Shown here in pieces: positions 2,335 through 41,585 of a stretch of 55,008 bases of DNA. Position 1 is the stretch's first letter, and every line of letters begins with the position of its first letter. Source of the stretch: a virus. Its lineage: Duplodnaviria; Heunggongvirae; Uroviricota; Caudoviricetes. A program made the position numbers and the translations under genes. Location of the stretch: IMG/VR virus record IMGVR_UViG_2925891887_000003; one strand, 5' to 3'. The notes beneath the pieces were generated by a model, which saw nothing but the letters and a program-made list of their open reading frames with translations, was not told the origin of the DNA and did no database searches.

Positions 2335-2348
2335 GATGCAGTTCTCCC

Positions 2349-2672
2349 TCAGTGTAAAACCGGCTTTTTGATGTGACGGACGCATAACTCATCCATTACG
2401 GCTATCCCGAGCTGGGAGAGTGCGGGACAGGACATTAGAGGGCCGGATTCCATCAGGTCTGAAAGCAGGGCGCAGGCGATTTCCATGCCTTTTGTTTGCC
2501 CGTGCTGTCGCAGATAAAATCCTTCAAGCTCACGGGCAATAGCGGTTTCAATTTCATCCAGAGTGAGCTGCAGGTGGCGGTTTTGCTGATAGCAGGCACT
2601 CAACCAGGCGCAGGCTACCGCGCGGCGATACAACGCTACCCGAAGTGAAAGGGAAAGAGTGCGTGATTTCAT
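2349..2672 (-). CDS. hypothetical protein, immediately upstream of alpha in the leftward operon
   Basis: 107-aa ORF, 14 nt upstream of the alpha start, same strand; ATGA overlap with the next ORF upstream. No recognisable motif. Confidence 0.4.
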
Positions 2673-2893
2673 TGCACCACCTCCATGTTCATCAGGTCAT
2701 CCTGGCAACGCTGTACCACGCCATCAAGCTGCTCTGTCATCAGATAAATCAGGGAAACCAGTTGCTCACATTGAGCACTGGCAGGTTTTTCGTAGCAATC
2801 CTGAAGAACAGCCATTCCGGTGACAAACTCCCCCACGTTACGAAGATGCTTCAGGCGGACAATATCGTCATAAGAGATTGCGGCGTGATTCAT
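2669..2893 (-). CDS. hypothetical small protein (position of P4 epsilon-like genes)
   Basis: ORF 2669..2932; internal ATG at 2893 ([11 protein letters not shown]...) preferred. Translationally coupled to the downstream ORF. Function inferred only from position. Confidence 0.3.
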
Positions 2894-3287
2894 CACATCA
2901 CCTCCCGGACAGGCAGGCGAGCAGCAAGGCAAAGCACATATTCATGGACCAGTGAAAGACGTGCATGAGACTCATCGCTGGCGACAATACGCAGCATACT
3001 GATACGTGGTTTACGTTCTGCACGACGAACGGCGGCAAAAACAAATATAAATTGAGGATGTGATGGGGTGAGGATCGTAGCCATAAGGGCAATCTCCAAT
3101 AAGTAGCGGTTATTGCCACCACCAGAGCTGCAAATCTCATGGGTGATGGCCCGGACGGGGTTTGCAGTACCGGCCTTATTGGAAACCGGCCAGCCCGAAG
3201 GCTGCCCCGCCCGGACCACCATTATCTGACAGGAGCCACGGTGTAAGCACCACAGCCCGAAAAATAGGTGTGCCTGAGCAACGACAT

Positions 3288-3309
3288 AAAAAAACACGCT
3301 CGACGCGTG
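3288..3309 (-). terminator. intrinsic terminator downstream of the AlpA/Vis-like gene
   Basis: On the minus strand: 5-bp GC stem (CACGC/GCGTG, loop GTCGA) followed by U7 (plus-strand A-run 3288-3294). Confidence 0.45.
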
Positions 3310-3437
3310 CTGTGTCGCCAATAAGTTACACGGGCTGCAAATCCCGGCTGCCGATTTTGCGGCAGCGGAAAAACTATAACTGGAAAGGTTGCCAGGACGC
3401 AAGCCACAAAAAAAGAGATGAGACTGCAAAGCCAGAT

Positions 3438-3698
3438 TCACGCATGGACTCCTTGCTCGCGGGCTGCAATTCGCGCCGCCATCCATGCACTGACCTCCGA
3501 CTGTACCCAGGCAACATTTTTTCCACCCAGGGAGATCTGCTGCGGGAAGGCATCACGGCTGATAAGGTCGTAGATGGTTGAACGGGATAGCCCGCAAAGG
3601 TGCATCACTTCAGGTAATCGTATGAAGCGCTCCTGCTGAGTCGGAACCGGGAGCACCGGAGCAGCTGGTGCCTGGGTGGAAACGGAAATAGTATGCAT
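3438..3698 (-). CDS. AlpA/Vis-family (MerR-like) phage transcriptional regulator
   Basis: 86 aa; [49 protein letters not shown] matches the AlpA-family pattern (RLP.V....G.SRST.Y......FP....LG...V.W..SEV..W). First gene of the leftward operon, divergent from the late operon. Confidence 0.75.
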
Positions 3699-4232
3699 CT
3701 CGCTACCTCTCTAATATGTTTTCAGTAGTCCGGAGAATTCCATCCGGATTCAGGTAGTTCCTTATTATGTTTATATAAGCGGCTCGCGCATGCTTTATTT
3801 AATTAGAGTGAAATATTGCTTTCTCAAAAAATAAAACAGCTAAAAACCGGATAAAACGGACAAAAACAAATCATTCCTTCATGGAATATAATAAGGAACT
3901 TAAAGAATAAAAAAGTCTATTACACCAGGCAGGATCGCAGCTCAAGCCTGAACCAGACCATATCATTCCGGGCGTTACATCATAAGGACAAAGACGGCAC
4001 CGGAATAATAAAAGGGCCAAAAAACATCCATAAAAAACAGTTCATCATATGTATTAATTAAATTAACGACTAAAAAATTAAATTACCCGCATCCTTCCGC
4101 ATTTATCCGGATGTGTTTAATGAGCATCAGACAGATTCATTTTTATGGATATTTTCTTGAAATGCAACCGAGTGTAGGGAGGTTAAGTTTTGAATTTTCA
4201 AACAGACATAAGACACATTTTATACTGTATAT

Positions 4233-4450
4233 TGAATAGTGTTGAATACGTGTGAATAGTGGTGATGAGTAAAAATCTAGTAATAAACTGAAATAAAGAT
4301 CGCGACTCATATGAAAAACAAATATAAGTTTAAATTTATCTCTGTGAACAGTCATGAACAGTAGATGACCACTTTGATTTAAACACTACACTCCTTAATT
4401 CCATGTATTTACTATTCTTTTATAAAAGTGAACAGTAGTGAATAGTATGT
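4233..4450. repeat. cluster of at least 7 TGAAYAGT-type short repeats (candidate iterons or operator sites)
   Basis: tgaatagtg, tgaatacgtg, tgaatagtgg (4233-4260); gtgaacagtc, atgaacagtag (4345-4365); gtgaacagtag, gtgaatagtat (4429-4450). Confidence 0.5.
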
Positions 4451-4511
4451 ATTAAAGGAAGGGTGAAGATCAGACATGACACCTTTCTCTGGCTAGCCAG
4501 AACAAGGTCAT

Positions 4512-4529
4512 TGTTCAGTCACTGGCACA
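4512..4529 (+). promoter_or_regulatory. TGT-N12-ACA dyad, candidate Ogr/Delta activator site of the late promoter
   Basis: tgt tcagtcactggc aca, ~75-90 bp upstream of the Sid-like start codon; P2/P4 late promoters carry a TGT-N12-ACA element near -55. Confidence 0.4.
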
Positions 4530-4601
4530 ATCCTCATCGGTAGTGCGCTTGTATGGGCACCGGCACAATTGACTCAACAACAAAACACTACCGGAGCAGC
4601 C

Positions 4602-5354
4602 ATGACAACTGTTAACCAGATCCCTGATGTAAACATTACACCTTCCCTCCCGCCGAAAATTCGCGAAGCGGTAGAAAAAGTTAAAGCAGCAAAAGCTGTC
4701 TGGCAGGAAGAACGGCGAAAACAAACTGAAGCCGCTGCAATGACTGAAACTATCCGTAAACGTCAGGAAGATACAAAAACGGAGACGCAGGCGCTTAATG
4801 ATGAATGGCGAAACCTGTTTCGTGAGAATCAGGGGAATATGACGCCACGAATGAAAAAACTGCGGGCAGAAATCGCCCTCGGACGCGAAACACTGGATGA
4901 GTTCGAAGATTTGCTGGCAGCTCAGGCCGCAGAAAATGAATTCCTGCCATGGAAAACTGCGGATGCTGCAAACCGCTACATCAGCGAACATAATCGCCTG
5001 ATTGAAACTCATGCAGTGTGGCTCTGGAATGAGTTTATGAAGGAACACGGCCAGAAACTTATTCAGATCCTTGGACTGCTGAAAATGACTCTGGGCCGAA
5101 GCGCATCTTCTGTTATCGGTGTAGTTCATACCGTAAACGACCCCGAAAGTGTGCTGAAGCAATTTATCAGCGAGCAACTCACCACTCCGGCACTGTCCTG
5201 TAACGTATCTTCAACGGATGATATTGCCCTGCCGGGGATCAGCATTTATGCGGACGATAAAGCCATACAGGATGCCAGACAATCACCCAGCCCTGCAGCG
5301 CGTTCCCGGATGCTTAAACAGCGTGACATGGTTAAAGGGGGCGAGAAGGAATGA
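4602..5354 (+). CDS. P4 late-operon protein, possibly Sid-like capsid size determination protein
   Basis: ORF 4569..5354 (TTG); ATG at 4602 with GGAG upstream preferred (250 aa). Predicted helical and charged; first gene of the operon ending in Psu-like and Ogr/Delta genes. Sid assignment is positional only. Confidence 0.4.
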   Translation: MTTVNQIPDVNITPSLPPKIREAVEKVKAAKAVWQEERRKQTEAAAMTETIRKRQEDTKTETQALNDEWRNLFRENQGNMTPRMKKLRAEIALGRETLDEFEDLLAAQAAENEFLPWKTADAANRYISEHNRLIETHAVWLWNEFMKEHGQKLIQILGLLKMTLGRSASSVIGVVHTVNDPESVLKQFISEQLTTPALSCNVSSTDDIALPGISIYADDKAIQDARQSPSPAARSRMLKQRDMVKGGEKE

Positions 5355-5905
5355 ATACCGGAACCATTACTAAGGAAGCTCTCAACGATTACCGCGCGGC
5401 GATAAAAAGCTGGCTGACACTACGTAATGTGCAAAGTACCAGCCAGCTTCGTCTGGCGGCTTTGCTGGATACTGAAGAAAAACCCGCAGCATATGCCAGC
5501 CAACTTGAGGATCTTCGTGAGCATCTTGTACTCCTCGAATGGCAGATTAACTGTGCCGCCCGGGATGGTCTTTATGCTCACCAGATTGTGCTGGAAAGCT
5601 GTGTTACAAGCGCAACTGAAAACTTCATGAGCGAGCATGGTGATGCACTCACTGACGCTCTGGCTCCTTTTCTTTGCGCACCATACGGGCTTGAGGCGGC
5701 AATGAAAATATTACGAACCGCTGTAGCCCGACAAACGGAAGTCCGTACTCCGGTAATTTCAGCAGCATATAAGAGCATTATCGACGAAACCGGATTAACG
5801 GTGGATGCATCAATGCGCGCTGATGCTTCAGCCAGTTTCACCCCGGCACAACATAAAGTTTTCCTGGCCCGCCTTAACCGACTTAATGAAAAAGGAGTGT
5901 GCTGA
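5351..5905 (+). CDS. Psu-like (polarity suppression / capsid decoration) protein
   Basis: 184 aa; ATGA overlap with the upstream gene. Segments ALTDALAPFL and SFTPAQHKVF resemble what I recall of P4 Psu. Moderate confidence. Confidence 0.55.
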   Translation: MNTGTITKEALNDYRAAIKSWLTLRNVQSTSQLRLAALLDTEEKPAAYASQLEDLREHLVLLEWQINCAARDGLYAHQIVLESCVTSATENFMSEHGDALTDALAPFLCAPYGLEAAMKILRTAVARQTEVRTPVISAAYKSIIDETGLTVDASMRADASASFTPAQHKVFLARLNRLNEKGVC

Positions 5906-5906
5906 T

Positions 5907-6179
5907 ATGGCCCTGAAGTGTCCTGAATGTGGCGCGGTCGCTCACGCTAGAACCAGCGCCTATGAAGCTCCGTCGGTTAAACGCTCATGGTATCAGTGCC
6001 AGAGTCTGGAATGTTCCTGCACATTTACCGCACTGGAAAGCGTGGATACGATAATTATGAAGCCTCGGCGCAATGAACAGGCATCAGACAAAGCAAAAAT
6101 GCCGGAAAAACAACAGCAAACTCTCAATCGCTATGGCTCCGCGTCAAAGCTGTCAAACCGTCAGCAAATTCCTGTCTGA
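5907..6179 (+). CDS. Ogr/Delta-family zinc-finger late transcription activator
   Basis: MALKCPECGAVAHARTSAYEAPSVKRSWYQCQSLECSCTFTALESV matches the Ogr/Delta C-x2-C...C-x4-C finger pattern; AAAGGAG RBS 9 nt upstream of the ATG. Confidence 0.85.
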   Translation: MALKCPECGAVAHARTSAYEAPSVKRSWYQCQSLECSCTFTALESVDTIIMKPRRNEQASDKAKMPEKQQQTLNRYGSASKLSNRQQIPV

Positions 6180-6270
6180 TTAGCAAAATACGCCCACGAA
6201 GTCTCGGTCCAGTACCGGGATTTTTTACGCTTTTTCCCTGGCTGGCCTGAGAGCGTATGAGTGCATATCT

Positions 6271-6309
6271 ATGGCGCATGAAAACGCATGAGTCTCATGC
6301 GCCATTTTT
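6271..6309 (+). terminator. intrinsic terminator of the late operon
   Basis: Perfect 11-bp inverted repeat atggcgcatga / tcatgcgccat followed by TTTTT. Confidence 0.6.
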
Positions 6310-6383
6310 GACGCGAAAGCCCTTGTGTGGTGGCTTCTGAGACGATTTAAGGGGTGCATGAAAACCAGTCTGTTAAGCGAAGC

Positions 6384-6407
6384 GGGCAGGCGGGCGGGGC
6401 TGCGCAC
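6384..6407. other. candidate cos (cohesive end) site of the P4-like element
   Basis: GC-rich gggcaggcgggcggggctgcgcac resembles my recollection of the P2/P4 cohesive end (GGCGAGGCGGGGAAAGCAC); sits where cos is expected, between the late operon and the cargo/int region. Not verified by alignment. Confidence 0.3.
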
Positions 6408-6451
6408 GCTGAGGGGAAGTATTGAGATCGGTGAGGGGAAATCTGATTCAT

Positions 6452-6473
6452 TAAAAAGGCCGCTTTCGCGGCC
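6452..6473 (-). terminator. intrinsic terminator ending the reverse-transcriptase operon
   Basis: Minus strand: GGCCGC-GAAA-GCGGCC hairpin followed by UUUUU, ~120 nt downstream of the RT-B stop. Confidence 0.6.
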
Positions 6474-6590
6474 TGTTTAGCTAAAAGGCAATAGTGTGTC
6501 TAAATCGGTCCATCCTCAAAACGTATCGCGAATATCTTTCGGATGAACATTCAAAAGCCGATCTTCCGGTATCTGCTTCAGGTCGAAACC

Positions 6591-8630
6591 TTAGGCATCG
6601 CAACCCTTTAACGAAATTAAAATACTACTATTCATATGCTGTTCGCAACTCTTTTTTATAAAGAACGTGCTCAAGATCAGCATCTCCAGACCAGTTAAAA
6701 AGATTACATTATTTTTTAAAGAATCAATTTCAGAATCAATTACTGCATTCGTAAATCTTTTTTGACCTGTATTTGCTTCGACATATGTTCTATAAATTAT
6801 TCTCTTATGCTTAACTGTAAGATATGGGCACGTCATCATATCAAGGAATAGCATAAATGTTTCAGTGTCTTTTTTTATATCGTTCCGACCACTTATCAAA
6901 CTCTGTATAGCAAGGACAATATCTTCTTTCATTTTTAGATAGAGAACATCATCGCCTATATAGTGTAACATGCTGCATATAGAAAAATATTCTAAATCGT
7001 AAAAACACTCATTCTCACTAATACCCAACAAATCCTTAAATTCATCTGGATTGAGTTTATACTGCTCCCCCAAACCTTTCATACATATAAGTAAGTTAGA
7101 TAACTCCACTGGCCTCTCATGAATATTACCCATGCTTTTCATGCACATAAGAAGCTCATCAAAAGTATTCTTTTTTATAACTTCACTAATGTCTGAAGCT
7201 TGCTTATTAGCAAATGAATTTATTTCCAAAATAACTTGGCTAATTATGTATGTCTGTCGGACTCGAAAATCCATAGCATAAATAAAAAAAATCACCTCAT
7301 TGAATATTGAGAAGAATTTATAAGTTATATCTTCTTTTCCTGACAGATCGAACATCCTCAACAGCCTAATTACTTTGAAAAACTTACTCTTAATCGCACT
7401 TATTAAGTATGAGCTAACAAGATCAAATGTGGTATTGTTTTTTCTAACCGCAATTTTGATTCGTTTTATAAATTTGTCCGCGTGTAGCTTTTTATTCCAT
7501 ACACCTTTCAATGGAAAAAGGTTATTCATATTTTCAGGCTGAATTTTGACGTCTGGATTTAAATTAACCATAGCTGTTAACTCATCCAACTTCTCAGTAT
7601 GGATTAACGATCCATATAAATCCTCAATGATTTCTGCAATATCATTTTTAGCCATCGTGGCTCCAGTCACGAATGGCCTCTCGATAAATTCCTTTTTAGA
7701 TTCATTCAAATAAAGCTTATATTTTTCGAGTTCATTTGCCAGTACAAATTCTATTAGCTTAAATGTTTCATCATCATCCGCAAATATAAAATAATCATCA
7801 ACGTAACGTCTTATAGCATAGCTCTTATCTTTAACTATGCCTGGCTCAAGATTCAAATGAGACTCAACATTCAAGTCAACGCGCTGTAATATAATCTCCG
7901 CAAATATCCTTGAAAATTCAGGCCCAATTATTATGCCATTTGTTTCACCATAATTGGCATCTTGAAAAAGCTTATCCAAACAACCTTCAAAGCTGTTATA
8001 AGTTCTATTAACCTTAGAGAATTCTTTAGATTTTACAGCCCATGAAACGCTGTGTGTATATATATGACTAAAACACTTAGCAATATCAAGCTTTAAAAGT
8101 TTCCTAAACTTCCTTTCCAATCTATGAAATTCATATGACTCATAAAACTTATAGATGAAAGGATATTTCTTATATGAAAAATGGGAAGATGAGGAAGTTT
8201 CTTGGGAATCAAAGCCATGATTATGAAATTGTACAAGACCATCTTTTAGATTTATTCTACTTTTTAAGAAGTCCTTTTCGTAATAATAGCTCCCTATTTT
8301 GCTAGGATAACGTAGCGAAAACGGACTTTTTGTACACATATGAACCATCAAATGTTCATACTTATCATAAAAATCACAGATTCTTAACTGCGTTGAAGGA
8401 TGTATAATGCCAAGGCTTCGAGAACTCGCCAGCCCCTTTTTTATTTTATAGGAGTAAGGGATGGTATAAGAATCCAGCTTAAGGCCTTCTGAAAATGTTC
8501 CGGGTAAAACTTTATTTTCAGAAATTAACTTATAGAAACCTTCGTTAGAAAAAAGGATAGGGACTTCATATGGTAAAATATCCGTGAGAAGTACTCTTTT
8601 ATAATCACTCTTCGATATTTTAATTTTCAT
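6591..8630 (-). CDS. reverse transcriptase, large (RT-B; UG/Abi-class defence-type RT with ~390-aa C-terminal extension)
   Basis: 679 aa, ~30% GC. RT motifs: LKLDIAKCFSHIYTHSV (motif A with Asp), NGIIIGPEFSRIFAEIILQRVD (motif B), RRYVDDYFIFADD (motif C, YVDD). GGTGA RBS; start 3 nt after the RT-A stop. Confidence 0.85.
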   Translation of the reverse strand: MKIKISKSDYKRVLLTDILPYEVPILFSNEGFYKLISENKVLPGTFSEGLKLDSYTIPYSYKIKKGLASSRSLGIIHPSTQLRICDFYDKYEHLMVHMCTKSPFSLRYPSKIGSYYYEKDFLKSRINLKDGLVQFHNHGFDSQETSSSSHFSYKKYPFIYKFYESYEFHRLERKFRKLLKLDIAKCFSHIYTHSVSWAVKSKEFSKVNRTYNSFEGCLDKLFQDANYGETNGIIIGPEFSRIFAEIILQRVDLNVESHLNLEPGIVKDKSYAIRRYVDDYFIFADDDETFKLIEFVLANELEKYKLYLNESKKEFIERPFVTGATMAKNDIAEIIEDLYGSLIHTEKLDELTAMVNLNPDVKIQPENMNNLFPLKGVWNKKLHADKFIKRIKIAVRKNNTTFDLVSSYLISAIKSKFFKVIRLLRMFDLSGKEDITYKFFSIFNEVIFFIYAMDFRVRQTYIISQVILEINSFANKQASDISEVIKKNTFDELLMCMKSMGNIHERPVELSNLLICMKGLGEQYKLNPDEFKDLLGISENECFYDLEYFSICSMLHYIGDDVLYLKMKEDIVLAIQSLISGRNDIKKDTETFMLFLDMMTCPYLTVKHKRIIYRTYVEANTGQKRFTNAVIDSEIDSLKNNVIFLTGLEMLILSTFFIKKSCEQHMNSSILISLKGCDA

Positions 8631-8633
8631 GAA

Positions 8634-9830
8634 TCACCAAACCTTATTTATTTTAATAATATCTTCCCGTTTAAAAGAAGACAGTAGCCGTTTTTCAAAA
8701 CCAGCCAAAAATGAGTATTTTTTAGGCGCAGTTAATAAGTTGTGACCTGCTGCTAAAATTTTTCTCCCCACCTCGCCCTTTGAAGAAAATAGCATCCTAT
8801 TCTTAAATATATCAAGTTCCTTGAGCTGTGTTTTATCAGTTATATGTTGATAATTGTAATAAATTCCACTATATAAAGCATCAGTTTTATTACTATTGGA
8901 GTTTACTAATATATTACCAGTTAAATACTTTATTCTTTTCTTCAAGAGTTCTGCATCAGAATTATTTGAGTAATCTTTTACCGCAAGTGCAATCCTTCTT
9001 TTTATTTTCTTTATTTTCTCCTCCGAAATTCTGATCACAACATGACGACGCTGATTTTTTAATCCATGGTGTATAATAAATGAATATCCCAAAAACTCAA
9101 TTTCAGAATGTTTAGTTGAAGTGTCCTCTATGGTATACTCACTGCACTTTCTTTCATTTAAATGTAATCCATTTGGTAAAATCCTTGAAAAATAATTTTT
9201 ATAATCTGGTATTTTATAGAATGAAAAAACTATGATATCATCCACATATCTTGAAGCATAAAAAACTTCAGGCAGCCTCGCCAACTCAGCATCAAATTCC
9301 TCCATAAATATTTCTGATAAAGTCGCACTTAATCCCATACCACGGGGAAGTCCGTTATTTGCAGAGAAAGCGTTATGTTTAAAAAGACCATTGATAAATT
9401 TTTTAGTATTATGAGAAATAATCGGGTTATTATTAATTCTTTGGAAAACGATATTTTTATCTATTGATTCATAAAAACTCTTAATATCCAGCCTGTAAAT
9501 ATAATAATTTACAGGCTCACTTAACACTGTATTTACTTTTTTTATGATGTCATGTCTGTTGTTTTGTTTAACACTATACACACGCTTAATGTTATCATTT
9601 ATTTTCCTGGCGACAAGTACATCCATAAAATCTTTAAATATATACACATTTTTGTTGTTAATTCTTGAATTTGAGATCGAACCAAATGAGTATGTTTCAA
9701 TTGAGCCATTAACTTTATCAGCTATATATTTTTTATATTCAGCTGAATTCCTACCAATTTTGTATCTTTTTGGATCGGTTTTTTTTAAAAGCTTAATTAA
9801 GTTCGAAACGGAAAATGACTGGTTTAACAT
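8634..9830 (-). CDS. reverse transcriptase, small (RT-A; UG/Abi-class defence-type RT)
   Basis: ORF track starts at GTG 9863 (overlapping int); ATG at 9830 with AAGGGG RBS preferred (398 aa). Motifs: YRLDIKSFYESID (A), GLPRGMGLSATLSEIFMEEFD (B), YASRYVDDIIVFS (C, YVDD). AT-rich. Confidence 0.85.
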   Translation of the reverse strand: MLNQSFSVSNLIKLLKKTDPKRYKIGRNSAEYKKYIADKVNGSIETYSFGSISNSRINNKNVYIFKDFMDVLVARKINDNIKRVYSVKQNNRHDIIKKVNTVLSEPVNYYIYRLDIKSFYESIDKNIVFQRINNNPIISHNTKKFINGLFKHNAFSANNGLPRGMGLSATLSEIFMEEFDAELARLPEVFYASRYVDDIIVFSFYKIPDYKNYFSRILPNGLHLNERKCSEYTIEDTSTKHSEIEFLGYSFIIHHGLKNQRRHVVIRISEEKIKKIKRRIALAVKDYSNNSDAELLKKRIKYLTGNILVNSNSNKTDALYSGIYYNYQHITDKTQLKELDIFKNRMLFSSKGEVGRKILAAGHNLLTAPKKYSFLAGFEKRLLSSFKREDIIKINKVW

Positions 9831-9831
9831 A

Positions 9832-11010
9832 TTATAACCCCTTTTTTTTGCGAAGATAATCACTGTACCATTGCATCATCTTCTGCCTTTCCATAAGGTA
9901 TATGGCATGATTATAAGTTCCTCTTATATTATTTCTATCAACATGAGCTAATTGGACTTCAATAAATGCTGATTGAAAACCTTCTTCATGCAAAATTGTT
10001 GATAACATATGTCTGAACCCGTGACCAGTGAGTCGGCCTTCGTAACCGATACGCTTGATAACTTGATTTATGCTAGCTTCGCTCATCGGTTTGTTCGGAT
10101 CGTTCCGTCCTGGAAAAACATAACGATAGTTCCCTGTCATTATCTTGAGTTCATGGAGTAAATCTAACGCTTGGGTCGACAATGGCACAAGATGCGGCCT
10201 GCGCATTTTCATCCTTTCAGCAGGAATTTCCCAAATAGCGTTATCCAGATCAAATTCTTGCCATAATGCCGCGCGTAATTCGATGGTTCTCACGCCCGTA
10301 ATCATCAGTAATTTCGTTGCTATCTGGACAAGCTTACTCCCGGTGTAACTCTCTAAGGCACGCAGAAATTCGGGTATCTCATCAGCTTTTAGGAACGGGA
10401 AATGATTGGATTGGTGCACTTCGAGAGCGCTGGAAAGATCTGCCGCAGGATTGTACTCCGCTCTACCCGTTGCAATTGCGTAGCGAAACACTTCAGAGCA
10501 ACGCTGACGCACTTTCCGCATTTTCTCCAACGCACCACGTTTCTCAATTTTACGCAGTACGTTCAGCAGCTCTAGCGGTTTAATCTCACTCACAGGCCTT
10601 GTTCCAACATAAGGAAAAATGTCGTTCTTAAACGCTTCCATGATGTCTGATGCATATCCTGCCGACCATTTAGCAGATTTAAGTTGATGCCACTCTCTGG
10701 CTATCTTTTCGAAGGCGTTCTCTGACTCTGCTTGCAGAGCCAGCTTTTGCTCTTTTCGAACATCACTAGGGTTCTTTCCTTCTGCCACAAGTTTTCGAGC
10801 TTCATCACGACGGGAACGAGCATCGGCAAGAGTGATCGTTGGGTAAACGCCAAGCGAGATCATCTTGGGTTTACCGGCATAGCGATAGCGGAACCGCCAG
10901 CTCTTGCTTCCATTAGGTTCTATAAGCAATGACAAGCCTTGCCCATCCCCAAGCGTATAGGGTTTATCTTCAGGCTTAGCGCGGCGAATCTGCATATCGT
11001 TTAAAGGCAT
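9832..11010 (-). CDS. int: P4-type tyrosine integrase
   Basis: 392 aa; N-terminus MPLNDMQIRRAKPEDKPYTLGDGQGLSL... typical of P4-family integrases; C-terminal HGFRHM...RGTYNHAIY catalytic region. Adjacent to the duplicated thrW 3' segment. Confidence 0.9.
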   Translation of the reverse strand: MPLNDMQIRRAKPEDKPYTLGDGQGLSLLIEPNGSKSWRFRYRYAGKPKMISLGVYPTITLADARSRRDEARKLVAEGKNPSDVRKEQKLALQAESENAFEKIAREWHQLKSAKWSAGYASDIMEAFKNDIFPYVGTRPVSEIKPLELLNVLRKIEKRGALEKMRKVRQRCSEVFRYAIATGRAEYNPAADLSSALEVHQSNHFPFLKADEIPEFLRALESYTGSKLVQIATKLLMITGVRTIELRAALWQEFDLDNAIWEIPAERMKMRRPHLVPLSTQALDLLHELKIMTGNYRYVFPGRNDPNKPMSEASINQVIKRIGYEGRLTGHGFRHMLSTILHEEGFQSAFIEVQLAHVDRNNIRGTYNHAIYLMERQKMMQWYSDYLRKKKGL

Positions 11011-11011
11011 G

Positions 11012-11061
11012 TGTATAGGAATCCATGACCGAACAGGAACATATACACAATCCTATACACA
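11012..11061. promoter_or_regulatory. 10-bp perfect inverted repeat just upstream of the int start codon (candidate operator or Int binding site)
   Basis: gtgtatagga ... tcctatacac separated by 30 bp. Confidence 0.3.
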
Positions 11062-11172
11062 TTCTTTATCGGATTCTACTGGATGGCTGCGGACGATGAT
11101 GGACTAAAAAACGGTAAAATCGTTATAAATCAGGGTATTTATGGATGAATACGGACATTTGGGGAAGTTGAG

Positions 11173-11219
11173 ATGGTGCCGATAATAGGAGTCGAACCTA
11201 CGACCTTCGCATTACGAAT
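11173..11219. repeat. att site: 47-bp duplicate of the thrW 3' end, junction between the two tandem elements
   Basis: atggtgccgataataggagtcgaacctacgaccttcgcattacgaat is identical to 53564-53610, which overlaps the 3' end of the intact tRNA. Confidence 0.85.
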
Positions 11220-11295
11220 TATAAGAATCCACTTCTAATTCAAAGCATTACCCCATCAACACTGCGCTCACACGTCCCACCACATCAAAACATGT

Positions 11296-11353
11296 AAAGC
11301 CTTGCAAGCCATTGCGAGGCCTTATGTGTCTCAGTTTTGTCCCACCTTGTATT
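11296..11353 (+). repeat. ~58-bp direct repeat, copy A (near the prophage end)
   Basis: aaagccttgcaagccattgcgaggccttatgtgtctcagttttgtcccac...; near-identical copy at 20129-20186; contains an internal hairpin GCCTTGC / GCGAGGC. Confidence 0.7.
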
Positions 11354-11568
11354 ACGACTTGCATAGCCAATGAAGATAAACGTGACGACAAACGGCGCAG
11401 CAGTCTTCTTTTCCTTCATACTTTCCCCACCCAGCATGCATACCTTTATGCCATAACTGAAGTTTATGTCTGTTATGAGCGAATTGCAGACATTAACGTT
11501 TGGTTAAGGGACGGGCTGTAGCCCGTCCCAGTGAGCGAAGCTTAATTTAGTCCGTGTGCAGCGCTTTG

Positions 11569-12999
11569 TTAGCCAAAACTGATGTGATTTTTAGTTAGAT
11601 CTCTATATCTCTTATCGTTGTGTACTTTATGGAGGATCGTTTGGTTGGCGATCAAAAAATCTATAATTTCTTGAATTCTTTCGCTACGAGCATTGGCTCT
11701 TAACAAAGTCAAAACGCTTACCATATGTTGCTGGCAGTATTTGTTGTCTAAATTCACTCGCACTTCATTAGAGTGCATTGCTATAACTGTATTGATAATG
11801 TTTTGATCGCCAAGCATGCCAAAAAACTGATCATACAAAGGTCGTCCCGCCGGAGAAACACCAGTATTATATGGTATTCCTTTACCAACACGACAAATCA
11901 AAACTGTTTTTATAAGCTTATGAACCCTCTCTAAAGGTATGTCATTTTCAGTCTTTAAATACGAAAGAATCTTCCGCATATGAGGGGGTTCATTATAAAA
12001 GTTATCCCAAGCATACCTAGCCTCTAAGAGATCGTCGGCATGGCCGTCCAGTGATATAATTCTAGAGTCTAATGATTGATAACGATTACCATCACAAAAC
12101 GTAAAAAACTCAATACCTAAAGCATGTTTCTCGTTGTGAAGATTGTTCTTGTATCCGTCTAGCGTCACGCCGAGCTTGTATTTTACGTTATCACTGCTTT
12201 TATTCCAGATATGCGGAGCAAAAAGAGCGATATTTTTTCTGACAACATTTCCTGTTGAATCAGCTGTATATATGCCGAAAATACTATTGAGTAGATTGTC
12301 AGTATTCTGAAGCGACAGATCATTCAAAGGTCTTTCCATGCTATGAATTGTGGCTTCATCAAGAACATCAGTGGATCTTTTTAGATTCTCAAGGAATGAT
12401 TTTATTTGTATGGCAGACGCGGACGGTTTGTCGTTCAAAATATCTTGAACGCATGTTTGGAGCCAGCCAAGAAGTTCAAAAGCATTTATGGAGTATGAAT
12501 TTGGGTGCGAAGCACCAATGTCATTCCTCATAGTCAATATATGATTGAGCTTGGTGTAAACAACGTCAGATATTAATTCAAGTTTTCGGCAAGTATTAAT
12601 AAGGGTGTTGTCTTTTAAACCAGAAAGATCTTCTTCGGTAGAATAAAGCTCTCTACGTCCTCCTCCAACTGCAGCATCAAAGAACATATCGAGGCCATAA
12701 ACTACTACTTTTTCCCTTAAATTCAGTACAACTTCATTCCAAACATAATTTAACGATGCATCAAATAGTCCTATAGCCGCACCAGCAACGAACTTTGATA
12801 AATATCGAGCATCTCTTTTTACCTCAGCAGGTAAAGAATCTATGAATGTGGGGAGGTTTTTTTCAATAATTTGGCGCTCAGGGAGAGAGGCAATTATATT
12901 TTCGGTCGGCAAACCAAGATAGGATAAATATCCTTCAAATTTTGTTGTATCTGTGGAAAGTACCCCTGTTCCAGGTTTTGCAATCAATTCTGAACTCAT
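11569..12999 (-). CDS. hypothetical 476-aa protein, AT-rich moron at the prophage end
   Basis: Long AT-rich ORF with ATG start; no motif I recognise. Strong 10-bp GC hairpin (11509-11531) downstream. Confidence 0.7.
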   Translation of the reverse strand: MSSELIAKPGTGVLSTDTTKFEGYLSYLGLPTENIIASLPERQIIEKNLPTFIDSLPAEVKRDARYLSKFVAGAAIGLFDASLNYVWNEVVLNLREKVVVYGLDMFFDAAVGGGRRELYSTEEDLSGLKDNTLINTCRKLELISDVVYTKLNHILTMRNDIGASHPNSYSINAFELLGWLQTCVQDILNDKPSASAIQIKSFLENLKRSTDVLDEATIHSMERPLNDLSLQNTDNLLNSIFGIYTADSTGNVVRKNIALFAPHIWNKSSDNVKYKLGVTLDGYKNNLHNEKHALGIEFFTFCDGNRYQSLDSRIISLDGHADDLLEARYAWDNFYNEPPHMRKILSYLKTENDIPLERVHKLIKTVLICRVGKGIPYNTGVSPAGRPLYDQFFGMLGDQNIINTVIAMHSNEVRVNLDNKYCQQHMVSVLTLLRANARSERIQEIIDFLIANQTILHKVHNDKRYRDLTKNHISFG

Positions 13000-13615
13000 A
13001 CGATTATTTCCTTATCTGGTTGAAGGCTAGAGAACAGCTAACGCTTTTAGCAGGGGCGCGACGTTAGGAGCGTCCCATACCTAAACTTGTTAAGGTATTT
13101 GTGAGCAAACGCCACCAGTATTTGGGTTTAGATCCAATACATACTTCATGCGAGTACAACCTATCCCGAATCAAGCAGGAGTCATTTCTCCCGCACTTAG
13201 GGTTTGGACATTTCATGTTCCCTACCCATGGTGAATTCGATTCGTAATGTACGATCTTCATAAAGCCTTAACAATTTAATAGAAGGCTTTTTTGCCCGCA
13301 AGTGGAACATTTTTCTGCCTTCTTTCCTGATCTTTACTCACATCAAACTAACGCTGATATACCTCTATTTCAACAGGTTTTTCTGAAATCAATAAATTTG
13401 CGTCCGGCAAACTTTATACAGCCAGTACGCGAGTTGTTCTTGATTTACTTAAGCTGGACACATGGGAATTATCCAGCGGCTTGTGCTAGTAAAAGAAGAA
13501 ATTATCAGGCATTTACCACAACGCCCAATGCCCGCTTTTGGCACAAAGCAGACGCCCACTCTCACGCGAATGCTTTGCCCTTGACTTGCCAACAACCGTA
13601 TCGCTTGCTCCGCAA

Positions 13616-14908
13616 CTATGGTTTTTTATTAGAATCTTCGCCACTAAATAAATTATAATAAATTGATTTTATTAGATATCTGTCAGAATCTATATGGTCA
13701 GCACGAGTAGCATGCTCTAATGTTTCAAATGCTAGGGTTTGTGCGGCTTCAGCAAAAATTCCAGGCCAACCCTTACTCAGCATCGACAGTCCTTTAAGGA
13801 CCCTTATCTGAATTTCCCTCATACTGGCACCATCGCGCGCAACAGGTGAGAAAAAGTCTTCAAGTAGATCGTTATTCTGAAGTGGTGCAACATGTACAGA
13901 AGGATATTTCACTTCTATTTCATCAGATTTATTCTGCGCGTAAGCGGAAAGTATACGTACACCTCTGCCAATGACATCAATGGCGGTTCCAGGATCGTTC
14001 ACTGCGGGGGAAAGGGCTCGGCAGGCTATTTCGGCCATGACGCTAAGACAAAATCGGGGGTCCTGAGCAAATGAACGTACATCCGAGACAATAATCGTCT
14101 CAAGTAAATCGGTGCTGATTGATGACTCCTGGCCCTGACTCAGGTACAAAACTGGCGTGGACGGATGTATGAAACTGCCCGGCTGCGCCACGAGGTATAC
14201 ATGACGGGGATCATTGGTCAGCAGCTTACTGAGTTTCACCATATCAACATATTCAACATAGCCAATCTTTTTCGGATAAACTGCAACCGTTCCTTTCGGC
14301 TGTTCATTGTTCTCAAGCCATGGATATCCGCCGAGACAGGGATTTCTTGCTCTCGCAATAAATGTTTCGATGGCCGCCTGTTCTACTTTTGCCGTTGTCT
14401 CACCAACCCTCCCCAGAGAGGTCAAATGCTGTATCCAGCGAAGCAATGTGATGAGGATTAAGGCAATGACAACCAGTGTTACAATGAATAAAATGACTCT
14501 CCCCCTTTCTCCATAAGCTCCCATATTGAGGGCAATAATCCCTACCAGACTGAAGAGAAAAGAACCGATGAAGGTGGCCAGTACATTTTGTGTGGTGACG
14601 TCTTCAACAACTAAACGAGTAGCTCTGGGAGTCACATTAGTAGTGGCTGAACCGTAGGCTGTGACCATGATGCTCAGCGAAAATGTGGTCACTGCCAGCA
14701 TACTCGATGCCAGTATGTTCAGAATGTTATCGACTGCTTCCGCACCAACCTTCACGGAAACCGACTCAGGTATCATTGATTTAAAAAGAATTGATAAAAG
14801 GGCCGTTATTATTGCGACAATTGCGAATAACGTTGCCCTGAACCATAGTTTTTTAAATGTCTGCTTCAGCATCCATTTCCAGCGTGAAATCATTCTGCAT
14901 TCCCTCAT
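13616..14908 (-). CDS. membrane protein with N-terminal TM helices (DUF2254-like)
   Basis: 430 aa; four hydrophobic segments in the first ~160 aa, then a soluble domain. Family name from recollection only. Confidence 0.55.
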   Translation of the reverse strand: MRECRMISRWKWMLKQTFKKLWFRATLFAIVAIITALLSILFKSMIPESVSVKVGAEAVDNILNILASSMLAVTTFSLSIMVTAYGSATTNVTPRATRLVVEDVTTQNVLATFIGSFLFSLVGIIALNMGAYGERGRVILFIVTLVVIALILITLLRWIQHLTSLGRVGETTAKVEQAAIETFIARARNPCLGGYPWLENNEQPKGTVAVYPKKIGYVEYVDMVKLSKLLTNDPRHVYLVAQPGSFIHPSTPVLYLSQGQESSISTDLLETIIVSDVRSFAQDPRFCLSVMAEIACRALSPAVNDPGTAIDVIGRGVRILSAYAQNKSDEIEVKYPSVHVAPLQNNDLLEDFFSPVARDGASMREIQIRVLKGLSMLSKGWPGIFAEAAQTLAFETLEHATRADHIDSDRYLIKSIYYNLFSGEDSNKKP

Positions 14909-14919
14909 ATTGCAGCCGG

Positions 14920-14949
14920 GATAAATAAATGCCGCCTCTGTGGCGGCAT
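14920..14949 (-). terminator. intrinsic terminator downstream of the BCCT transporter gene
   Basis: Minus strand: 8-bp stem atgccgcc/ggcggcat followed by a U-rich tract. Confidence 0.5.
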
Positions 14950-14956
14950 GTTGCTG

Positions 14957-16960
14957 TTAACGAACCAGATGCAGGAAGTGCAGGTGTTTTTCGTACTGGT
15001 CCAGTATGTCATTAATCAGCTGTTCCTGATTCCAGCCCATTACATCATAATTTTGGCCGCCCTCTTTGAGATAGACTTCAGCGCGATAATATCGATGTTG
15101 TTCACTCTGCTGCTCATCATTATCCAGCGCAGCGAGCGCGAAGGTCGGTGAGTTATACCCGCGAAGCCTCACTTCATATATATAATTCAGCTCGTTGCCC
15201 AAATCGACTTCAAGGCGAATACGATCCTCGGCGGCGTCACTGATGTGGCTTATCGTTCCCTGCTTGTTAAGTTCCTCCTGAACCAGCGTCATGGCGGGTT
15301 GGATAATGTCGTCCATAAAACGTTTCACAAGAGAGCGCTTCGGCAAATACGCGATATTGCGTAACCTTCTCTGCCAGGGAATTGGGTTACGTGCAGCCGT
15401 AGGAGCAATAGTCGCCATGCTAAGGCTTTCACGCTTGGTCAAATCCCGACGCAGGGCTTTTAACAGTCCGTATATGGATATTAATAAGATAACTGAGAAG
15501 GGCAATGCACTCGCTATCGTTACGGTTTGCAACGCACTCAGCCCCCCTGCGATCAGCAGGGCAATAGCAACAACGCCCATGAGCAATGCCCAGAAAATTC
15601 GCTGCCAGACGGGCGTGTTTGCCACCCCACCTGATGCCAGAGTATCCACAACCATTGCCCCCGAATCAGCAGACGTTACAAAGAAGACGATGACCATCGC
15701 CATTGCAATGAATGACAGCACGGAAGAGAACGGGAAATGCTCCAGGAAATTAAACAGGGCAAGCGCAACATCCTGCTGAACGGTATTGGCGAGGTCAGTG
15801 GCGCCCTGGTTCATGATGAGATAGATGGCGCTGTTTCCAAACACCGTCATCCACATGAGCGTAAAGCCGGCGGGAACAAACAACACGCCAGTCACGAACT
15901 CACGAATTGTCCTGCCGCGGGAAACGCGTGCAATGAACATACCTACAAACGGCGACCATGAAAGCCACCATCCCCAGTATAATAATGTCCAGCCCCCCAG
16001 CCAGTTGCTCGACTTGGGTTCATACGCGTAAAGGTTGAACGTTTTACTCACCAGTTCCGACAGATAACCACCCGTATTTTCCACAAATGACTTCAGCAGA
16101 AGCACAGTGGGACCCAGGCACAAGACCAGCGCCAGGAGCAACACCGCCAGGCCCAGATTAAGCTCAGACAGGATGCGTATTCCCTTGTCCAGGCCGGACA
16201 CCACCGAAATCGTCGCTAACCCCGTGATGACCACGATCAAAATGACCTGTACCGTTTCATTGATGGGCACGCCGAAAAGATGGTTCAAACCGGCATTCAC
16301 CTGCAATACACCGTAACCCAGCGATGTTGCAACGCCAAAGACAGTGCCTATCACGGCGAAGATATCAACCGCGTGGCCTATAGGCCCGTAAATGCGATCG
16401 CCGATAATGGGATAGAGCGCAGAACGCAGCGTTAAAGGCAGACCGTGACGGTAACTGAAAAAGGCCAGAATCAGCGCCACGATGGCATAAATTGCCCATG
16501 CGTGCAGACCCCAGTGGAAGAACGTCAGGCGCATGGCTTCCTTCGCTGCCGCAACGGTCTCTGGAGTGCCGACAGGTGGCGAAAGATAATGCATCACAGG
16601 TTCGGCAACGCCAAAGAACATCAGGCCGATCCCCATCCCTGCCGAAAAAAGCATCGCGAACCAGGAGTGGTAGCTGAAATCAGGCTGCGCATGGTCTGGG
16701 CCCAGCTTTATATCACCGTAACGTGAGAGTCCAAGGAACGTGACGCTCAGTAAAATCAGGGCCACAGCAAGTATGTAGAACCAGCTGGCATTCGTGAAGA
16801 TTTGTTGCTGAAGTAGTTTAAAATTTTTGTCGGCGACATCCGGGAATACGGCGGCAAAGGCGACAAGAAGGAAAATTAGCAAAGCAGATGTAAAGAATAC
16901 CGCTTTGTTAACCTGGCTTGTAGACTTCTTTGGGGTTGTATCATTTTCACTCATAATCAT
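14957..16960 (-). CDS. BCCT-family transporter (BetT-like choline/betaine transporter)
   Basis: 667 aa, polytopic; long collinear similarity to E. coli BetT (e.g. SRYGDIKLGP, WTLLYWGWWLSWSPFVGMFIARVSRGRTIREF) plus a C-terminal cytoplasmic extension. Divergent from K-12 betT. Confidence 0.8.
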   Translation of the reverse strand: MIMSENDTTPKKSTSQVNKAVFFTSALLIFLLVAFAAVFPDVADKNFKLLQQQIFTNASWFYILAVALILLSVTFLGLSRYGDIKLGPDHAQPDFSYHSWFAMLFSAGMGIGLMFFGVAEPVMHYLSPPVGTPETVAAAKEAMRLTFFHWGLHAWAIYAIVALILAFFSYRHGLPLTLRSALYPIIGDRIYGPIGHAVDIFAVIGTVFGVATSLGYGVLQVNAGLNHLFGVPINETVQVILIVVITGLATISVVSGLDKGIRILSELNLGLAVLLLALVLCLGPTVLLLKSFVENTGGYLSELVSKTFNLYAYEPKSSNWLGGWTLLYWGWWLSWSPFVGMFIARVSRGRTIREFVTGVLFVPAGFTLMWMTVFGNSAIYLIMNQGATDLANTVQQDVALALFNFLEHFPFSSVLSFIAMAMVIVFFVTSADSGAMVVDTLASGGVANTPVWQRIFWALLMGVVAIALLIAGGLSALQTVTIASALPFSVILLISIYGLLKALRRDLTKRESLSMATIAPTAARNPIPWQRRLRNIAYLPKRSLVKRFMDDIIQPAMTLVQEELNKQGTISHISDAAEDRIRLEVDLGNELNYIYEVRLRGYNSPTFALAALDNDEQQSEQHRYYRAEVYLKEGGQNYDVMGWNQEQLINDILDQYEKHLHFLHLVR

Positions 16961-17485
16961 TTATTCCATTAATTAAATCCGCACTGGATAGAAGGTACTA
17001 CCTCTCACAGAGTAGCAAAGTTCAACTGGCTATGCGGGATTAATCGGAATGCATGGTGGAATGAGTGCCGATACAAATCATCCTATATTCTAAGGAGTTT
17101 TAAGTTACTCAGCCTGCCAATTACTGGGGCATTTAATTTGTATGATCTGTATCAAAGCTGGGATATAAGTTAAGTGAAGTATATTAGGCACGAATTACCA
17201 GCGTCTGCTCTTGGCACATAGCAGACCAGAGACACTGGCGTAAAGCCATGGAGGATCGGTGGGAGGAGGTAAAAATCCTCTCATGCAAAAAATACGCAAA
17301 ATCGATAACAGTTGGAAATCATTCAATACTCGCACTATCGGAAGTTCACCAGCCAGTCGTAGCACGTTCTTGCATACGACGTGGCTACGGGTTTCGAGAC
17401 CGACCCGATCATCAAACGAAACATAAAATTAGCTCACATTATGAGGAAAGGTATCTTTTTGCGCTATGTAAATTCAAAGGGTTAG

Positions 17486-18355
<870 letters not shown>

Positions 18356-18905
18356 GTATTCAATTGATAAGATTAAACCGCAGCACGTTATTGCATACAA
18401 CGTGTCTGCGGTTTCAACTCCGCCGGCCCCCCCCAATCATGATTGGACAGCACTTGCAAAAAAAGAAATTAGTATTCTCAGCAGGACACCGGTCAGATAG
18501 TGCGGCAGATCAATGTCTGGTTAATATTGATGACCGCTGCCCGCTGATTCTATTGCCGAAACTGTGCGGGAAAAGATGTGGCAAGATATTGTTGGTAAAA
18601 AATTCTCAGTGACTTTATGCCAGCAAATCAGTTTGCCTGGCATCCAGTATCATGTGCGGTGGATAATGTCAAAAAACATGGGGAGTCGATTAAACAGGTA
18701 TAATCGTTAAAAACCTTCAAACTCCAGGCAAAACCCTATTTCATAGAACATGTACTTTCATCTGGTATACATGAACGAATTATGACTGCGTTAGTAAAAT
18801 TACCTTGGTTAAATTACAGGCAGAGATATATGTTCCAGTCCAGTGCTTTTTCGTTTACAATATTTATCTTTCATTATCACTTGACTTTATTAAAAGAGGT
18901 TCGTT

Positions 18906-41462: not shown

Positions 41463-41585
41463 AAGCTGTGTGGCGAAGTAACCACTCTTAACAGATTACA
41501 AGAATTTTTGCGGACCGCGTTAATGATTTTTAATCCCAAAGTCGTATTATTCGTTTTTTACTGTAGGAGTTAATAGGTTTATATT

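Follow-up and report, generated by a model that had tools for sequence, protein, structure and literature searches.

The 55,008-nucleotide stretch of DNA analysed here (hereafter the window, meaning the whole stretch; IMG/VR virus record IMGVR_UViG_2925891887_000003, Caudoviricetes) is identical in sequence to the chromosome of Escherichia coli PC-NDM34, and the subject of this study is a gene at 11569-12999 of its minus strand, whose product is annotated in RefSeq as the hypothetical protein WP_001460374.1. The original prediction, made from the sequence alone, had described this gene as a large, confidently coding and AT-rich open reading frame (ORF) in a moron position at the prophage end, with no recognisable motif and of unknown fold, and had suggested that it could be an abortive-infection or exclusion factor. 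It is certainly a real gene, as had been claimed: an AAGGA ribosome-binding site is found by inspection about 8 nt 5' of its ATG, and more than 1,197 homologues were identified, nearly all of them 475-478 amino acids (aa) long, with 730 related clusters in a library of 50%-identity representatives. The markedly lower GC content was also confirmed, being 37.5% (32% at third codon positions, GC3) compared with 50-59% in the phage structural genes nearby, and it is common to the family, whose genes have 34-40% GC against 47-59% in their hosts and are AT-rich in every host examined. The target and its Aeromonas and Pseudomonas copies share 77% nucleotide and 89% amino-acid identity with saturated synonymous sites, and the ratio of nonsynonymous to synonymous substitution rates (dN/dS) was about 0.03 in the one gene pair for which it was computable. 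These comparisons indicate that the family is under strong purifying selection.

The gene and the elements of its product are as follows.
11569-12999, minus strand: target ORF of 476 aa (WP_001460374.1), complete with an ATG start, encoding a predicted HEPN domain and alpha-solenoid.
12430-12945, minus strand: N-terminal HEPN domain, about residues 19-190, as seen in the AlphaFold model.
12505-12528, minus strand: predicted catalytic motif R158-N159-D-I-G-A-S-H165 (Rx6H), assigned by conservation and position in the model.
11572-12420, minus strand: C-terminal all-alpha ARM/HEAT/PUF-like solenoid of about 280 residues (194-476), a predicted sensor or regulatory domain.
11989-12003, minus strand: invariant patch N333-F-Y-N-E337 of the C-terminal domain, identified in the alignment.

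A model of the protein generated by AlphaFold from a deep alignment (predicted local distance difference test, pLDDT, 93.5; predicted template modelling score, pTM, 0.85) has two domains, and it shows the target as a predicted HEPN domain followed by an alpha-solenoid, so that the fold is no longer without assignment. The N-terminal domain is a four-helix up-and-down bundle with an Rx4-6H motif that has a polar residue after the arginine and lies at the position expected for HEPN. In the model, R158 and N159 close the helix 145-161 and H165 lies in the loop 162-172, which is followed by the next helix, 173-188. The placement of the catalytic motif in HEPN domains at a helix end and in the following loop was defined by Anantharaman et al. 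(PMC3710099), who also noted that 6-residue spacers occur and that asparagine commonly follows the arginine; the motif position in the model agrees with the fold, since it is this same site. In an alignment of 72 divergent homologues with 21-51% identity, from which all conservation counts given here were taken, R158, N159 and H165 were each kept in 71, with a spacing of six residues fixed in 71/71, and the lone exception had lost all three together. Helix 79-101 carries further conserved residues (D80 in 71/72, E89 in 59/72 and R95 in 66/72), but their spacing is not Ex3[KR]. In the C-terminal domain, N333 and E337 were kept in 72/72 homologues, F334 in 64/72 and Y335 in 54/72, and by inference only this patch is proposed to be a ligand pocket. 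As a separate observation, position 328, which adjoins the patch, is histidine in 64/72 homologues (consensus A-H-x3-N-N-F-Y-N-E-P), and it is arginine in the target and its close gammaproteobacterial relatives, a subfamily-specific change.

In the structure search proposed in the original prediction, Foldseek found no significant match to the target model in the PDB and gave weak matches to PUF/Pumilio-type RNA-binding solenoids, and profile searches of PDB sequences with the target returned no match or noise at the level of troponin. The weak solenoid matches would fit a non-nucleolytic protein that binds RNA or nucleotides and serves as a regulator or scaffold, for example in counter-defence or host modulation by mobile elements, and the HEPN domains of Roquin, MtlR and nucleotidyltransferases are examples of HEPN domains without nuclease activity. 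We consider this explanation very unlikely for the target, because non-catalytic HEPN families typically lack Rx4-6H (PMC3710099), whereas the arginine, asparagine and histidine are kept in every member of the alignment except the one from which all three are gone.

The statement that the protein has no motif holds for library searches, although it does not hold for the sequence itself, in which the conserved HEPN Rx6H is present. No family of Pfam or NCBIfam at curated cut-offs, or of PADLOC, matches the target, and PHROG 27609, which matches it well (E 3e-122), is a PHROG without known function. CoV_NSP7 (E 0.09) and a beta-helix repeat (E 0.058) were the sole weak library matches and were dismissed as noise. 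A Pfam scan of the 72 divergent members yielded a single weak match to DUF4145 (E 0.007), which we regard as suggestive and not as evidence. A homologue on a Lactococcus plasmid was considered as a possible member of a known abortive-infection (Abi) family, and this was rejected as it matched none of the Abi families in PADLOC. Clear homology to a housekeeping or metabolic enzyme family, which the original prediction had named as the outcome that would speak against a defence role, was not found, and the literature search returned no mention of WP_001460374.

The target gene is an integron gene cassette, with a structure consisting of the ORF, an attC site and an upstream G/TT box, and the features that define the cassette are as follows.
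11489-11575, minus strand: attC site of the cassette, with an R'' box GGCTAAC (11568-11574) overlapping the TAA stop codon and a degenerate R' box G/TTAATG (11491-11497).
13036-13095, minus strand: upstream attC-like site (CCTTAAC ... GTTAGCT), the 5' boundary of the cassette, ending about 35 nt before the ATG.
13064-13261, minus strand: ORF of 65 aa, a deletion remnant of the 159-aa ORF of the preceding cassette, matched by tblastn as two fragments of 9457-9936 in the Yersinia rohdei locus (L021).

The 48 bp just 3' of the stop codon of the E. coli target recur about 20 times in a locus of Pseudomonas sp. TMP25 (L006). The locus represents a chromosomal integron, with a gene for an IntI that scored 483.7 bits against TIGR02249 (cut-off 265) and an array of at least 19 attC sites, which starts beside IntI and has the target homologue between its first and second attC. 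The E. coli attC, with its central hairpin GGGACGGGCT/AGCCCGTCCC, could be aligned with the 19 Pseudomonas integron attC sites, and 88% of the cells of the alignment were paired, compared with 21-54% when the partners were slid, with compensatory changes in the L''/L' helix. The DNA fold of the E. coli attC gave a z of -3.7. A covariance model was built from the aligned attC sites including the E. coli one, which scored 60.2 bits as a site that is itself in the training set, and the same model detected an independent attC overlapping the stop codon of the Aeromonas homologue with 41.9 bits (E = 8e-8), weaker matches in Shewanella and Paraglaciecola, and one further attC in Yersinia. By inspection, an R'' box at the stop codon together with a G/TTAGCC or G/TTAGCT box 30-40 nt 5' of the ATG is present in 9 genera. 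The upstream attC-like site of the E. coli copy was undetected by model R1, and its fold alone was not significant (z = -0.7 and -1.7).

The attC of the E. coli copy looks like the result of a deletion between two adjacent attC sites, and in this hybrid form with a degenerate R' box it is probably inactive. No intI was found within the window, and the E. coli copy is therefore similar to clusters of attC sites lacking an integrase (CALIN). Because its attC is hybrid and degenerate and the preceding ORF has been cut from 159 to 65 aa, it represents a fossil pair of cassettes without an integrase; the 159-aa ORF is intact in Y. rohdei, and the 65-aa ORF matched no family of Pfam or PADLOC. The target gene is thus no invention of the phage but a fossil integron cassette, and it occurs in chromosomal integrons and on multidrug-resistance plasmids as well. 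Apart from this, the E. coli attC was observed to be a chimera whose first about 30 nt match the Yersinia/Winslowiella attC of this cassette and whose last about 49 nt are of the Pseudomonas type, and in Y. rohdei (L021, 11425-11670) a second attC lies about 165 nt further 3'. In Baaleninema simplex PCC 7105 (L045, 16200-19700), more than 40 copies of a 66-bp tandem repeat, probably coding, lie about 5 kb from the homologue; the repeats of this locus were rejected as attC sites, as they consist of the coding 66-bp repeat plus other repeats.

The position of the cassette in the prophage is defined by two further features.
11174-11219, minus strand: attR core, 46 bp identical to the 3' end of thrW, at the boundary between the lambdoid prophage and a P4-like satellite.
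11220-11480, no strand assigned: att arm of the thrW-integrating prophage, common to most E. coli genomes without the target gene.

ARAGORN detected one tRNA gene in the window, tRNA-Thr(CGU), that is thrW, at 53565-53640; the second 46-bp att copy lies inside it (53565-53610), and the integrase of the lambdoid prophage, which has a Mu-like tail, adjoins it. From the att copies at 11174-11219 and in thrW, the target is the last gene of a prophage that spans 11220-53564, at a distance of 350 bp from the att core. In sister thrW prophages the same slot, from the att arm to the tail-fibre genes, is occupied by a type II restriction-modification (R-M) system in strain F2_81 and by a DUF262 protein in strain D3. 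The moron position was borne out, as the target is an att-proximal cargo gene between the tail-fibre genes and att, of atypical GC content and in a slot that is variable in related prophages. The attC hairpin 3' of the target could also act as a terminator.

On the same strand and 5' of the target, a BetT-like BCCT transporter (667 aa) and a DUF2254 membrane protein are encoded inside the prophage borders (13616-16960, minus strand). These two genes, of which the first is for an osmoprotectant transporter, move with the target onto IncF-type plasmids. A functional link between the target, DUF2254 and BCCT was considered and rejected, as both genes are absent beside homologues outside E. coli, Shigella and Klebsiella.

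The target gene is carried by only 47 of 5,426 complete E. coli genomes, and 4,290 genomes match only the first about 260 bp of the query, namely the att arm. This rarity, together with the hybrid and degenerate attC, the absence of an integrase nearby, the degraded ORF of the upstream cassette and the lack of a detected promoter 5' of the target, might suggest that the gene is a silent passenger in this E. coli, that is, a fossil cassette carried along with the BCCT-DUF2254 segment, unexpressed and of no benefit to prophage or host. We judge this decidedly unlikely, because the ORF has remained undamaged, with one and the same sequence in plasmids and chromosomes from four genera, the ribosome-binding site is good, and the upstream DUF2254 and BCCT genes lie on the same strand, so that read-through transcription would be possible.

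The family was found in Proteobacteria, Firmicutes, Cyanobacteria, Planctomycetota and one archaeal metagenome-assembled genome (Nitrosotalea); it is patchy across phyla, and members from different phyla often share about 50% identity, as do the copies of E. coli, the Bacillus group, Planctomycetota and Cyanobacteria. Homologues of 478 aa, such as WP_138971958.1, occur in Vibrio. Distant members are located on plasmids of Clostridium, Bacillus, Streptomyces and Lactococcus, and an E. coli paralogue with 53% identity lies between ogr and gpD of P2-like prophages in about 1,000 contigs. Copies at least 99% identical to the target are present in 50 plasmid records of E. coli, Klebsiella, Shigella and Enterobacter, and in the one plasmid examined an IS26-containing resistance region has taken up the target segment. 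In this plasmid, of E. coli AR_0162 (NZ_CP021681.1, 64713-92246), the segment composed of the target, DUF2254 and BCCT genes is flanked on one side by an IS26 transposase gene and a truncated integrase and on the other by relB and a truncated relE, followed by a resistance region with qnrS1 and blaCTX-M-15; the plasmid also carries a BREX system (brxC, WYL).

With regard to the genomic neighbourhood, no neighbouring family recurred in more than 6 of 78 species loci, and a small downstream partner or antitoxin was rejected, as the ORFs that follow the gene in Aeromonas, Methylovulum and Bdellovibrio show no relationship to each other. The copy of Y. rohdei ATCC 43380, which is 96% identical, lies directly 5' of a type II operon of the cyclic-oligonucleotide-based anti-phage signalling system (CBASS; L021, 11798-17092), which encodes an HNH-SAVED effector, a SMODS CD-NTase, a ThiF-like E1 and JAB and is followed by a 3'-5' exonuclease. 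This island, in which RadC and DUF4942 genes are present too, lies 3' of dnaG-rpoD. The Methylovulum copy shares its locus with a NACHT-like gene (faint Pfam match) and a DNA methyltransferase gene, and the immediate neighbours in other loci include type I, II and IIG R-M, Shedu, MADS, HEPN_Swt1 and Fic genes. Toxin-antitoxin genes were also observed beside the target or its homologues on plasmids, namely relBE and yacAB in E. coli and HicB and Phd in Clostridium perfringens.

The latter neighbours raise the question of whether the protein acts as a toxin in stress or dormancy, or as an addiction element, in which an HEPN RNase would arrest translation under stress or upon loss of the element and thereby stabilise an integron array, a plasmid or an island. 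A toxin- or addiction-type role has been proposed for HEPN proteins in integron cassettes by Anantharaman et al. (PMC3710099), the nearly identical copies in the 50 enterobacterial plasmid records would be in line with it, and the high conservation would fit a host-directed target. However, neither a cognate antitoxin nor any other conserved neighbour was found, classical toxins do not resemble a protein of 476 aa that has a large and conserved additional domain, and the gene is often situated beside CBASS, R-M and Shedu systems as well as in prophage cargo slots. We therefore regard a toxin or addiction function as unlikely.

The explanation that we prefer is that the target is a self-contained, trigger-activated HEPN RNase of an undescribed family that acts by abortive infection, and we consider that it is probably correct. 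The analysis itself establishes the ORF, the modelled fold, the conserved motif with its position, the absence of a partner gene, the cassette structure and the genomic contexts. On the basis of the conflict-system contexts and of three single-protein HEPN defence systems that serve as templates, we infer its RNase activity, substrate, autoinhibition, trigger and anti-phage phenotype. Two copies of the N-terminal HEPN domain, with R158, N159 and H165, would pair into a composite RNase site that works without metal; catalytic HEPN enzymes are characterised by such dimers and by cleavage products with a 2',3'-cyclic phosphate. The C-terminal alpha-solenoid of about 280 aa would hold the enzyme off and act as the sensor. 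A cue associated with infection would switch the enzyme on, and it would then cut cellular RNA, most plausibly the anticodon loops of tRNAs, resulting in a stop of translation and an aborted infection. The gene is spread as a one-gene integron cassette, and in this E. coli it resides as a fossil cassette in the att-proximal cargo slot of the thrW prophage. The solenoid, and indeed the protein as a whole, is so extremely conserved that the cue is more likely to be a generic signal, a nucleic acid or a nucleotide, than a variable phage protein. The suggestion of an abortive-infection or exclusion factor has thereby been strengthened, by the HEPN fold, the conserved motif, the lack of a partner, the defence neighbours and the carriage in an integron cassette, a type of vehicle in which many defence genes have recently been found, but it is not proven.

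Some points weigh against this abortive-infection RNase and should be set beside it. A convincing sigma-70 promoter was not found 5' of the target ATG, and integron cassettes are normally promoterless. Many neighbours of the homologues are housekeeping genes, and the frequency of defence neighbours is a raw one. No PADLOC v2.0.0 model matched the target, 6 remote relatives or the 72 divergent members at E up to 10, the last of these giving scattered noise alone, and no homologue with a tested phenotype was identified in a search outside which the defence studies of Vibrio chromosomal integrons lay. Copies of the target were absent from 50,697 GenBank phage genomes, and the very slow evolution of the protein is unusual, being atypical of phage-sensing proteins.

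The slow evolution may, however, be informative in itself: purifying selection of this strength is unusual for a mobile gene of a conflict system and points to a ligand or target that is conserved. It is conceivable, if doubtful at present, that the family represents a new class of single-protein immune sensor, in which a near-invariant solenoid, unrelated to the sensor domains of DARNA and ApeA, reads a universal signal other than a protein, for example a ligand derived from nucleotides or some structure in a nucleic acid, the whole being spread by integrons as a plug-and-play module for any host, clinical multidrug-resistance plasmids included. This would account for a mobile defence gene changing no faster than a housekeeping enzyme.

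If the abortive-infection RNase proposed here is correct, the 730 or more 50%-identity clusters would make up a family of HEPN effectors and would join the small set of self-contained HEPN immune proteins that comprises ApeA, DARNA and HepS. The gene is present with 99-100% identity on 50 plasmid records, and on the single plasmid that was analysed it lies next to CTX-M-15 and qnrS1; should it alter phage susceptibility in any way, this would matter for both phage therapy and plasmid ecology. The route from a chromosomal integron, through a cluster of attC sites without an integrase, to a prophage cargo slot and an IS26-bounded plasmid segment also provides a concrete case of cassettes feeding moron slots. 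The result is not conceptually surprising; its value lies in a clearly delimited candidate that is very widespread, is present on clinical plasmids and is conserved in an unusual way.

Other features of the window were recorded alongside. Between the tail-fibre genes and the cassette (17291-19973), the prophage contains a fragment of a capsid gene (17291-17371), a gene for a LEM-3-like GIY-YIG protein (17582-18355) and an acyltransferase gene of 31% GC (18906-19973), whose product is a possible O-antigen modifier; sister prophages retain the capsid fragment and the GIY-YIG gene but differ in what lies beyond these. A gene for a KAP-family P-loop NTPase (41585-42916, plus strand, about 31% GC), on the opposite strand between the Q antiterminator and holin genes, is a second low-GC moron candidate, in a classic slot proximal to the late promoter. 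On the other side of the attR core, 1-11173 is a P4-like satellite integrated in tandem at the same thrW att site, with genes for an alpha primase-helicase, an icd-like protein, two copies of psu, delta/ogr and an integrase (9832-11010). A complete DRT3 system of about 30% GC (Drt3b, 6591-8630; Drt3a, 8634-9863) lies between delta and int of the satellite, an interval known as the hotspot for defence genes in P4. The immunity region of the satellite contains the C4 antisense RNA, isrK and c4-a1b1 (3139-3379, minus strand), as detected with Rfam.

Among known systems, DARNA (PD-T7-3) of E. coli (RCP48690.1, PDB 9tra), a dodecameric protein of 456 aa, is an HEPN tRNA anticodon nuclease activated by single-stranded DNA (bioRxiv 10.64898/2026.02.22.705581). 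The target resembles it in being encoded by a single gene of similar size (476 versus 456 aa) found in E. coli accessory DNA and in its domain order, with an N-terminal HEPN domain of about 160-190 aa followed by a C-terminal all-alpha HEAT-like domain of about 280-300 aa. In contrast, the motif of DARNA is Rx4H (R117/H122) and that of the target Rx6H (R158/H165), the target family has been spread by integrons, and no sequence similarity between them was detected at E up to 10, as judged by the PADLOC models, among which that of PD-T7-3 was assumed to be included. DARNA is the closest known architecture, and the target may yet be very remotely related to it in sequence. The HEPN domain of ApeA is C-terminal, a domain order unlike that of the target, and ApeA was reportedly described as a defence protein by Gao et al. 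in 2020. Like the target, it is a stand-alone HEPN protein of a few hundred residues; it is a tRNA anticodon nuclease that is activated by a deoxydinucleotide bound in a conserved pocket away from the active site (bioRxiv 10.64898/2026.01.26.701840). By analogy, such a distant ligand pocket could explain the highly conserved non-catalytic domain of the target. No match to the target was obtained with PADLOC or Pfam, in which the ApeA and Apea-like HEPN models were assumed to be included. HepS, a solo HEPN protein of less than 250 aa from the Salmonella Gifsy-1 prophage, senses the siphovirus tail protein J directly and responds with abortive tRNA cleavage (PMC13043305); it is likewise an HEPN protein without a partner gene from the accessory region of a lambdoid prophage, whereas the target possesses a further domain, about 280 aa long, and shows no sequence relationship to it.

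With respect to integrons, the "Integron cassette HEPN" family (PDB 3jrt; PMC3710099) shares with the target a conserved Rx4-6H HEPN domain and its occurrence in gammaproteobacterial integron cassettes, but it is small and forms a separate family in the classification of Anantharaman et al. (2013). According to Kieffer et al. (bioRxiv 10.1101/2024.07.02.601719), about one-third of the tested cassettes of unknown function from mobile integrons were phage-defence genes, termed bacteriophage-resistance integron cassettes (BRiCs); the target cassette is like these in being a compact single-ORF cassette between attC sites that integrons have moved among species, and it is not among the cassettes named in the accessible text. 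In comparison with all of these systems, the target family is classified as a new HEPN-effector family with its own sensor-like domain, which has been spread by integrons.

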